From: a virus
Strand: one strand, 5' to 3'
IMG/VR virus record: IMGVR_UViG_3300045988_115369
Length of the DNA stretch: 41,577 nt
The translations under genes and the position numbers were made by a program. The notes under the pieces are model-generated. The model was given only the letters and a program-made list of their open reading frames with translations. It had not been told where the DNA came from and did no database searches. This document shows positions 38,518-38,981 of the stretch, one piece after another. How positions within the stretch are numbered: the stretch's first letter is position 1; each line of letters begins with the position of its first letter.

Positions 38518-38540
38518 ATTTTGGTTATGTACCACAATTA
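38518..38540 (-). promoter_or_regulatory. Variant phage-RNAP promoter phi-8 (tandem with phi-7)
   Basis: Minus strand TAATTGTGGTACATAAC. It has one change in the GGCAC core. Confidence 0.55.
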
Positions 38541-38708
38541 CATTTTATTCAATTTGTCTTTGTTCTTGATACAAAAAGTATGAATCAGATCTCTTAATAC
38601 TTGTGAAGGATTAACACCATGATGTTCACATACTGTATACAATCTATTTTTCTCTCTTTCTGTAATGCGGATTTTAATCTCTGCATTTTTATAGGAACCA
38701 TCGTCCAT
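38538..38708 (-). CDS. Ribbon-helix-helix DNA-binding protein, paralog 2
   Basis: ATG at 38708 after AAAGGAGAAAGAGG. IKIRITEREKNRLYTVCEHHGVNPSQVLRDLIHTF shows the strand-helix-G-helix RHH pattern. Confidence 0.7.
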   Translation of the reverse strand: MDDGSYKNAEIKIRITEREKNRLYTVCEHHGVNPSQVLRDLIHTFCIKNKDKLNKM

Positions 38709-38727
38709 TCTTTTCCTCTTTCTCCTT

Positions 38728-38907
38728 TCACAATAAATTTTTCTTTCCCTCATTGTTTTCACAAAATTCTTCAATAAGTTTTCTGATTACTTTTGATGGT
38801 GTCATGCCCATGTTCTGACAAATTTGATAAAAATTTTGCTTATCTTTATCATTTATCCTAACGCGCACGGAACACTCTTTAAGATCTTTGTCTTCAATTT
38901 TCTGCAT
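38728..38907 (-). CDS. Ribbon-helix-helix DNA-binding protein, paralog 1
   Basis: ATG at 38907, 5 nt after AAAGGAGG. VRVRINDKDKQNFYQICQNMGMTPSKVIRKLIEEF shows the RHH pattern and aligns with paralog 2. Confidence 0.7.
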   Translation of the reverse strand: MQKIEDKDLKECSVRVRINDKDKQNFYQICQNMGMTPSKVIRKLIEEFCENNEGKKNLL

Positions 38908-38940
38908 GTTTTCCTCCTTTGGCAACATAAACACACCTAT

Positions 38941-38969
38941 ATTGTAGCATAGGTGTGTTACTGTGTCAA
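38941..38969 (-). promoter_or_regulatory. Host sigma-70/SigA promoter P3, driving the RHH pair
   Basis: Minus strand TTGACA, a 17-nt spacer and TACAAT, with an extended -10 TG. It begins 13 nt after the RNAP stop codon. Confidence 0.8.
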
Positions 38970-38981
38970 TATGTTCCTACA

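Follow-up and report, generated by a model that had tools for sequence, protein, structure and literature searches.

Layout and products of the RHH1–RHH2 locus

This study concerns a pair of small genes, RHH1 and RHH2, which encode ribbon-helix-helix (RHH) proteins and lie directly behind the RNA polymerase (RNAP) gene in the viral record IMGVR_UViG_3300045988_115369. The whole stretch of 41,577 nucleotides (nt) is referred to as the window. In the gene layout at the RNAP/RHH locus, all window genes are on the minus strand. The RNAP open reading frame (ORF; 38982..41546, minus strand) codes for a single-subunit RNA polymerase of 854 amino acids (aa) with ~36% identity to the T3/T7-type RNAPs. 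Its TGA stop codon occupies positions 38984..38982 and is directly followed by the 10-mer TGTAGGAACA (38981..38972). Then comes P3, a sigma-70-type promoter (38941..38969, minus strand) composed of the -35 hexamer TTGACA (38969..38964), a 17-nt spacer, and the TG-extended -10 hexamer TACAAT (38946..38941). The promoter scan found 11 of 12 consensus positions matched, with TG preceding the -10 hexamer.

RHH1 (38728..38907, minus strand; 59 aa, starting MQKIEDK) is preceded by the ribosome-binding site AAGGAGG and RHH2 (38538..38708, minus strand; 56 aa, starting MDDGSYK) by GGAG/GAGG. Independent gene calls in 18 related contigs gave the same 59-aa and 56-aa products. The stop codon of RHH2 falls within a phage-promoter-like 12-mer, and the transcription unit is closed by an intrinsic terminator (38340..38408, minus strand) with 25-nt arms followed by UUUUUUAUUGUUUUU, the hairpin and U-run being given as 38352..38408. 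The terminator hairpin has a folding energy of -27.9 kcal/mol (z = -7.3, none of 200 shuffles as good) and is kept in the relatives. The P3–RHH1–RHH2 unit thus has its own promoter, an upstream RNA hairpin described below, and a downstream terminator. An earlier note on this DNA had described two small paralogous RHH genes that have strong ribosome-binding sites, follow the RNAP gene, and are driven by a separate host promoter starting 13 nt after the RNAP stop. The promoter scan, the ORFs and the profile searches bear this description out, the -35 hexamer of P3 beginning 13 nt past the first base of the TGA.

The two products are paralogues (35% identity over 54 residues, E = 5e-15). Both scored above the cut-off of 22.4 bits for the Pfam family RelB PF04221 (RHH1 34.4 bits, RHH2 28.1 bits), with alignments confined to the RHH section at the start of the profile (positions 3-39 of 82 for RHH1 and 1-32 of 82 for RHH2). 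RHH1 also matched RHH_9 with 25.9 bits at a cut-off of 23.4. The best true match by sequence in the PDB was the N-terminal domain of RelB (2k29/4fxe); TALE and PPR matches in the same search were rejected as repeat artefacts. The NCBIfam RelB/DinJ model TIGR02384 gave 35.2 and 23.1 bits, under its cut-off of 45.65, and PHROG 582 'Arc-like repressor' matched weakly (E = 9e-4 and 6e-3). Pfam Arc gave no match to either protein at E up to 10, and one database source tags the RHH2 protein merely as a NikA-like hit.

The AlphaFold monomer models (pLDDT 80.5 for RHH1 and 77.6 for RHH2) consist of an extended N-terminal segment and two helices joined by a G-x-x-P-S turn. The beta-strand is CSVRVRIN in RHH1, with helices at residues 20-33 and 37-52, and AEIKIRIT in RHH2, with helices at 17-30 and 34-48. 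The top 50 Foldseek matches of the RHH2 model were mainly RHH proteins (ORF56, ParG, Arc, CopG, CopA, PutA), all at E >= 0.17; such weak values are expected since the query has only 56 residues. The structure-prediction check of the fold that the earlier note had proposed gave strand-helix-helix in both proteins, and by profile and structure they show the N-terminal strand and two helices that define the RHH superfamily. The models are of monomers; RHH proteins are obligate dimers that pair their two strands and contact DNA with the resulting sheet, and RHH1 and RHH2 would be predicted to do likewise.

Both proteins end ~7-10 residues past helix B and lack the toxin-wrapping C-terminal tail. 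There is no toxin gene beside the pair, the next gene downstream being the paralogous RHH gene and then the phage promoters and the terminator. A RelB/DinJ toxin–antitoxin identity was rejected on the grounds of the missing tail, the missing toxin, and the scores under the NCBIfam cut-offs. Since neither a toxin-binding tail nor a toxin gene is present, RHH1 and RHH2 appear to be bare RHH DNA-binding domains rather than antitoxins. The PADLOC anti-phage defence models gave no meaningful match.

Putative operators, cassette types and neighbouring motifs

Searches based on the RNAP and on the RHH proteins yielded more than 100 related loci, and the comparison covered ~50 related genomes. In all relatives whose RNAP is at least 78% identical, the RHH pair stands directly after the RNAP gene. 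The RHH cassette occurs as three types. In type A, which has the RHH2 strand of the window (AEIKIRIT), the predicted DNA-facing residues are E-K-R-T and the spacers of the early host-type promoters P1 and P2 carry the 9-mer GTAGGAACA. Type B combines the strand AQFRLRIS (Q-R-R-S) with the 9-mer GGATACACA, and type C the strand VRIKIRLT (R-K-R-T) with GGGAGTACA. The strand residues of RHH2 predicted to face the DNA are therefore different in all three types.

The window contains exactly four copies of GTAGGAACA, compared with 0.34 expected, and none of 100 shuffles reached four. All copies are on the sense strand (2966, 3449, 3667, and 38972) and always at regulatory positions. In P1 (3655..3683, minus strand; TTGACG-17-TACAAT), the 9-mer occupies spacer positions 3-11 (3667..3675), and four columns of this spacer separate type A from type B genomes perfectly. 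P2 (3437..3465, minus strand; TTGACA-17-TACAAT) carries it at 3449..3457, and a second, imperfect copy, TGTAGGCACA (3428..3437, minus strand), begins at the last base of the -10 hexamer, 21 nt after the first copy. The hexamers of P1 and P2 are kept among the relatives and the ~200 nt between the promoters are highly conserved; spacer positions 3-11 vary with the cassette type.

The third place, designated site 4 (2955..2975, minus strand), is a double site in which TGTAGGAACA is followed by CGGAACACAT, ~40 nt ahead of where the first early gene is likely to begin. It could serve as a roadblock or an auxiliary operator. Eight diagnostic columns lie in and around it, and type B genomes carry GG(A/C/T)TACACA and then GGATACAT at the same place, with two GGATACA copies 12 nt apart. 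The fourth place is the P3-up site (38972..38981, minus strand), an exact copy of the 10-mer located 2 nt before the -35 hexamer of P3, and is a candidate autoregulatory operator. In the relatives this site reads GGATACACA in type B and TGTAC(G/A)CACA in type C. Its distance to the -35 hexamer is 2 nt in type A and 12 nt in type B, i.e., one helical turn apart. The P3 hexamers are retained in every cassette type and their flanks vary.

For the association scan, a 10.5-kb alignment around the RNAP gene was used, comprising five type A and seven type B genomes. It contained 103 columns perfectly diagnostic for A versus B, of which 85 fall in P3–RHH1–RHH2, 16 in or beside P1, P2, and site 4, and 2 elsewhere. 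Among the non-redundant genomes, the core of P1/P2 matched the RHH type in 24 of 24 (seven of type A with RNAP type 1, six of type A with RNAP type 2, nine of type B with RNAP type 2, and two of type C with RNAP type 1), and the RNAP type did not predict the core. None of the six early genes co-segregated with the motif; these genes and the RNAP type reassort freely relative to the cassette, and the class II genes are likewise independent of the motif. As expected, the phage promoter sequences, which served as a positive control of the method, co-varied with the RNAP type and not with the RHH type.

The variable core of TGTAGGAACA thus switches with the RHH type at four sites located up to 3.5 kb away. 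The link between cassette and operator persists despite the shuffling of everything between them, as selection acting on a protein together with its binding site would give. The TGTAGGAACA 10-mers, which the earlier note had put forward as candidate operators, consequently behave as cassette-matched operators.

When the strand residues were compared with the operator, those of RHH1 predicted to face the DNA did not differ between types A and B, and two cores were present in type C. RHH2 is the better-fitting candidate for the operator reader because its strand residues differ in the three types and because a distant relative, L055, shares both the strand and the motif. The C-terminal 18 residues of RHH2 are identical in nine aligned sequences from types A, B, and C, and the DNA coding for this invariant end forms the right edge of the exchangeable block.

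A further element of the locus is an inverted repeat at P3 (38930..38959, minus strand) with an 11-bp stem and an 8-nt loop, which encloses the -10 hexamer (-20.8 kcal/mol, z = -2.9). Its type B counterpart (L071 9712-9762) encloses the -35 hexamer and shows four compensatory pairs, with 96.9% of the cells paired and 1 of 500 shuffles as good. The type A hairpin shows one compensatory pair as well as one-sided G-U changes on the sense strand. The RHH beta-strands are unchanged alongside these substitutions. The repeat was rejected as a palindromic autoregulatory operator on account of the compensatory and G-U changes without protein change and its position around the -10 hexamer in type A versus the -35 hexamer in type B. 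We read it as a hairpin formed by the RNAP message near its 3' end (a terminator, an attenuator, or a processing/stability element), which would also insulate P3.

The phage promoter 12-mer is present in eight intergenic copies on the sense strand (165-176, 6100-6111, 6127-6138, 30209-30220, 35637-35648, 38292-38303, 38505-38516, and 38529-38540, all minus). Behind its core TAATTGTGGCAC, (G/A)TAGAAGGGGA usually comes next. In the relatives with an RNAP of 78% identity, TAATTGTG(G/A)(T/C)A(T/C)GCTATGGAGAAG takes its place, giving two natural RNAP–promoter specificity pairs. Tandem cores at 38490..38540 (minus strand) comprise TAATTGTGGTAC (38529..38540) and TAATTGTGGCAC followed by GTAGAAGGGGAAGAGAG (38505..38516 onward); as judged from the sequence comparison, they are next to the cassette and not part of it. 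Read across the window ends (to 41546), the copy at 165-176 is a consensus phage promoter immediately before the RNAP gene, and positive autoregulation of the RNAP is thereby implied. A phage promoter before the RNAP gene was likewise reported for phage LUZ100 (PMC10134795).

Two 21-bp tandem repeats (38439..38487, minus strand) each contain the 13-bp palindrome ATACTTTARGTAT (38454..38466 and 38475..38487). These repeats are conserved across types A, B, and C and segregate with the promoter/RNAP block. Two copies are found in the window, L006, and L021, and one copy in most relatives. The earlier note had also named these palindromes as candidate operators. As they are invariant across the RHH types, we rejected them in this role; they are situated in the transcribed leader of a phage promoter and are possibly an origin or leader element. 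The T7 primary origin consists of phi1.1A and phi1.1B together with an AT-rich region, and the tandem phage promoters and AT-rich repeats at 38439-38540 of the window resemble it.

Elsewhere among the early regions, the part of the window at 3030-3654 (minus strand), made up of the ~200 nt between P1 and P2 and a ~450-nt leader behind P2, is GC-rich and without ORFs longer than 55 aa. It appears well conserved in the inspected relatives despite the swapped spacers and has no Rfam match; it could be a structured leader or a non-coding RNA. The only Rfam match in the window was a tRNA, and a tRNA-Met (CAT) gene lies among the structural genes (23756-23831, minus strand). In some type A genomes (L021, L074, L082-L088), a T-run, GGTAAG, and a hairpin are found before another early gene ~1.3 kb upstream of the RNAP gene (for example, L082 1837-1880). 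This hairpin has a 9-bp stem (GTGCGGATG...CATCCGCAC) and a GGATACA-like sequence in its loop.

Temperate lifestyle, prophage remnants and more distant relatives

The Pfam scan identified a tyrosine integrase (PF00589) at 4006..5160, listed on the plus strand. The phage has a T7-like gene set, including a tail tube protein and a T7 assembly protein; a DNA polymerase and a helicase-primase were seen in the relatives. The search of a genome collection returned a sole locus, a prophage in the chromosome of Dialister sp. i34-0019-2H8, which carries int, P1/P2, the early genes, RNAP, RHH1, RHH2, and the class II genes. Compared with the window, its integrase is 99% identical and its RNAP 78%; the class II genes are mainly 94-100% identical, one being 64%. 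The module is also present in several metagenome contigs whose length (55-108 kb) exceeds that of the phage genome. The integrase, the related prophage in the Dialister chromosome, and the long contigs together indicate that the phage is temperate and infects Negativicutes.

The Pfam scans of the 30 other window proteins revealed no HTH or other DNA-binding regulator. The earlier note's picture of an integrase-carrying genome without a CI-like HTH repressor thus holds within these proteins. In the known temperate T7-like phages, a MarR-like regulator beside the integrase has been proposed to control lysogeny (PMC10134795); none was found among the same 30 proteins. It should be noted that the LUZ100 study reported no stable lysogens and called the evidence for temperate T7-like phages ambiguous (PMC10134795). 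Searches of the INPHARED phages with the cassette, at the DNA level and by tblastn, gave no match, and among cultured phages only the RNAP found matches, at ~36% identity. In the literature, we found no description of RHH proteins linked to lysogeny in the Autographiviridae and nothing on T7-like Dialister prophages.

Several loci proved to be prophage remnants (L111 2650-5300; L112; L113; L114 240-4050; L115 3790-5662; L003-L005 50-750) in chromosomes of 53-59% GC. They have lost the integrase, the early genes, most of the RNAP gene, and all later genes but still hold between one and three intact cassettes, of differing types. In L003-L005, which are three independent assemblies, an 800-bp low-GC fragment lies in a chromosome of 53-57% GC with non-phage DNA on both sides; it comprises the last 45 nt of the RNAP gene, P3, intact RHH1 and RHH2 genes (type C-like), and the phage-promoter region. 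At apparently the same chromosomal junction, L111-L113 have a tandem pair of cassettes (B, then A'). L114 has three tandem cassettes (C, A', B) with all six ORFs intact and a P3-like promoter before each, and L115 has two (C, A') before the contig ends. Every remnant cassette has a 3'-end fragment of the RNAP gene in front, and the hexamers of the remnant P3-like promoters are partly degenerate. Between the cassettes of L114 lies a duplicated, partial copy of the adjacent bacterial membrane-protein gene.

It is difficult to account for repeated deletions that spared the cassettes, and for the stacking of different types, unless a cassette by itself benefits its carrier. The retention is suggestive and would fit a repressor conferring immunity in trans. 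We know of no counterpart to tandem arrays of up to three heterotypic cassettes in one remnant. They led us to a tentative reading, the three parts of which are claimed jointly and would together have to be called doubtful. According to it, the cassette would be a mobile immunity unit exchanged by recombination and bounded by the conserved 3' ends of the RNAP gene and RHH2; Dialister-like hosts would gather types from infecting or resident phages into remnant arrays, which might act as a heritable, expandable repressor record against several immunity types simultaneously; and a heterodimer with an asymmetric beta-sheet might read the non-palindromic 6-bp core.

More distant relatives have a single RHH homologue upstream of the early genes on the opposite strand, a divergent arrangement that is the classical position of a repressor. 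In L055, whose RNAP is 49% identical, the RHH strand NAEIKIRLP is like NAEIKIRIT of RHH2. Its intergenic region contains TGTGGGAAC exactly three times within 90 nt, once in the spacer of TTGACA-17-TACTAT, and several type A phages have this same 9-mer as their P3-up variant TGTGGGAACA. In L047 and L048, both the strand (VVLQIRLD) and the repeated motif, GTCATGACA, are different, and the motif is likewise found in an early promoter spacer. These three loci tie an RHH2-like strand to the GGAAC motif and show the design to be a general one within the wider group. In L019 and L060, where a single RHH gene follows the RNAP gene, no common spacer motif was found in their four early promoters.

In L055 (1763-2524) and L047 (3032-3820), the gene just before the RNAP gene has an N-terminus that looks Bro-N/antirepressor-like by eye only. 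The combination of this gene with the divergent RHH gene suggests a possible repressor–antirepressor circuit in these lineages. No Bro-N-like counterpart was recognised in the window.

The probable role of the RHH pair

Taken together, these results lead us to consider, with a confidence somewhat better than even, the P3–RHH1–RHH2–terminator segment an autonomous unit, transcribed by the host, for a type-specific early repressor and the probable module for lysogeny maintenance and superinfection immunity of a temperate T7-like Dialister phage. As would be expected of an immunity repressor, the pair is encoded by an integrating phage, and the type-specific 9-mers, its predicted binding sites, overlap the lytic early promoters. 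The earlier note had proposed a repressor/antirepressor or maintenance function. We favour repression of the early promoters; no antirepressor was recognised in the clade.

In the proposed mechanism, RHH dimers (RHH2 alone or an RHH1:RHH2 heterodimer) would insert a two-stranded beta-sheet into the major groove of TG-N6-CA sites, the six central bases (TAGGAA in A, GATACA in B, and GGAGTA in C) setting the type. As the sites fill spacer positions 3-11 of the strong sigma-70 promoters P1 and P2, the bound protein would exclude the host RNA polymerase, and the double site 4, before the first early gene, would act as an additional roadblock. Shutting P1 and P2 would prevent synthesis of the phage RNAP and leave the class II/III genes on phage promoters silent. 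P3 with its adjacent site would supply the repressor in the lysogen and allow its autoregulation, and insulation of the unit would come from the RNA hairpin that separates the RNAP gene from P3 and from the terminator behind RHH2. Recombination would swap the block from the 3' end of the RNAP gene to the 3' end of RHH2 between phages and thus generate heteroimmune types.

Several points weigh against this interpretation. Only three cassette types were found in the clade, which thus offers few independent switches, and type C rests on two full genomes. In addition, the P1/P2 core of type C (GGAGTA) differs from its core at site 4 and P3-up (TAC(G/A)CA), which a single specificity leaves unexplained. 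The role of RHH1 is unclear because its predicted DNA-facing residues are equal in types A and B. Lysogeny may need further controls, since a repressor of sigma-70 promoters cannot stop phage RNAP that has already been made and a phage promoter (165..176) lies upstream of the RNAP gene. Nor can an induction mechanism be discerned, the clade showing neither a cleavable domain nor a recognisable antirepressor. Small ORFs may also persist in remnants by chance, which leaves the retention of the cassettes suggestive rather than proof. Finally, DNA binding, repression, expression in lysogens, and immunity are predictions from sequence comparison.

It is possible, though in our judgement unlikely, and the main alternative that the same RHH proteins repress P1/P2 only as a feedback or shut-off of early transcription by the host RNAP during the lytic cycle, with lysogeny held by other means. 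Arc shuts off Pant in P22 in a similar way, and the near-consensus P3 should fire at once on infection, together with P1/P2. The location of the cassette at the early/middle boundary, just before the phage promoters, also agrees with such a role, as do the lack of a visible induction mechanism and the MarR-like regulator proposed beside the integrase of the known temperate T7-like phages (PMC10134795). However, the 30 other proteins scanned include no MarR, HTH, or other regulator, and a role in timing would not explain why specificity types and their matching operators should have diversified, or why deleted prophages hold on to cassettes and may stack as many as three types. In the related lineages, moreover, the single RHH gene holds the classical repressor position, divergent from the early genes. 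We regard it as distinctly improbable that another phage or host factor reads the 9-mers, the RHH pair autoregulating P3 or acting on some other target and the co-segregation resulting from linkage or a third gene. In its favour, the comparison covered 10.5 kb around the RNAP gene and not the remaining ~30 kb, most early proteins are without recognisable domains, and type C has two different cores. Against this stand the 85 of 103 diagnostic columns that lie within the cassette and the complete absence of such columns from the six early genes, as well as the reassortment of the RNAP and class II genes independently of the motif. In the distant L055, whose early genes are not those of the window, this beta-strand again goes together with this 9-mer, and the remnants are little more than cassettes.

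The two explanations that remain are far less credible. That RHH1 and RHH2 are CopG/RepA-like replication regulators acting at an adjacent putative origin would agree with weak matches to RepB-RCR_reg and a RepA replication regulator and with the adjoining tandem phage promoters and AT-rich repeats, which recall the T7 primary origin. Yet the palindromes (ATACTTTAAGTAT) and repeats do not change with the RHH type, and the type-specific sites are all at host-type promoters, making this reading very improbable. Slighter still is the chance that the pair are orphan RelB/DinJ-type antitoxins, or anti-defence decoys neutralising RelE-like toxins of the host or a prophage. The best sequence matches are indeed the RelB/DinJ models and RelB structures, but the profile alignment of RHH1 covers only positions 3-39 of 82, both proteins stop ~7-10 residues after helix B without a toxin-binding tail, and the NCBIfam cut-off is missed (35.2 versus 45.65). 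No toxin gene is adjacent, the neighbour being the paralogous RHH gene and then the phage promoters, and the matched operators would be left unexplained.

An early repressor and immunity unit of this kind resembles several known systems in part. Like Arc and Mnt of the P22 immI region, which the earlier note had brought to mind, RHH1 and RHH2 are small phage-encoded RHH proteins forming a pair, and the Arc operator sits between the -35 and -10 hexamers of its target promoter. The weak PHROG 'Arc-like repressor' match and the Arc structures among the Foldseek matches point the same way. The likeness is confined to function; by sequence, the pair is nearest to the N-terminal domain of RelB/DinJ, with no Pfam Arc match. 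Unlike the pair described here, Arc and Mnt control the antirepressor and not the main early promoters, and they are not close paralogues on one transcript. P22 also depends on an HTH repressor, C2; here, the scan of the 30 other proteins gave no HTH protein.

The MarR-like regulator of LUZ100 and of Agrobacterium and Pelagibacter phages is similar in its proposed task, as it would hold lysogeny by blocking expression of the phage RNAP, and both kinds of phage have a phage promoter before the RNAP gene (PMC10134795). It differs in being a winged HTH protein beside int rather than an RHH pair after the RNAP gene, in its proposed sites, which flank the promoter upstream of the RNAP gene instead of lying in the spacers of sigma-70 early promoters, and in its hosts, which are Proteobacteria rather than Negativicutes. 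Both systems are at present proposals.

The N-terminal RHH domain of RelB/DinJ (E. coli RelB, 2k29/4fxe) is the nearest by sequence. Each RelB dimer recognises one short hexad, adjacent dimers being spaced by ~12 bp, and the GGATACA copies of type B site 4, located 12 nt apart, resemble this spacing; what separates the present pair from RelB/DinJ is the lack of the toxin-binding tail and of a toxin gene, together with scores under the NCBIfam cut-offs. The Omega repressor of pSM19035 and CopG/ParG are RHH dimers that read short non-palindromic units, varied in number and orientation, at several promoters, and ParG and CopG are among the structural neighbours of RHH2 found by Foldseek. Those proteins act in plasmid copy-number or partition control, not in phage immunity, and RHH1 and RHH2 show no sequence-level membership of these groups. 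The immunity regions of lambdoid phages are likewise exchangeable repressor–operator modules that define heteroimmune types in mosaic, near-identical genomes, and cryptic or defective prophages retain repressors as the remnants here keep cassettes. The lambdoid phages use the HTH proteins CI and Cro, whereas here an RHH pair would act on operators in the spacers that control the gene for a single-subunit RNAP.

Phage immunity involving RHH repressors, as with Arc and Mnt of P22, is already known, and so are immunity regions that can be exchanged, as in the lambdoid phages. What appears to be new is an RHH pair after the RNAP gene as the only visible regulator of a temperate T7-like phage, putative operators in the spacers of the promoters driving the RNAP gene, a Negativicutes host of the human gut for temperate T7-like phages, and tandem arrays of heterotypic cassettes in prophage remnants; we found no description of any of these four in the literature searched. 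The candidate operators are defined to a 6-bp core, with three natural specificity variants around which the RNAP and early genes of two backgrounds have been shuffled. The matched RHH–operator pairs could serve as orthogonal repressors alongside the two RNAP–promoter pairs. If the heterotypic cassette arrays truly protect their hosts, they would represent a form of phage resistance that we have not seen described. To the question of how temperate T7-like phages hold lysogeny, this clade offers a concrete, testable answer that is built from different parts.

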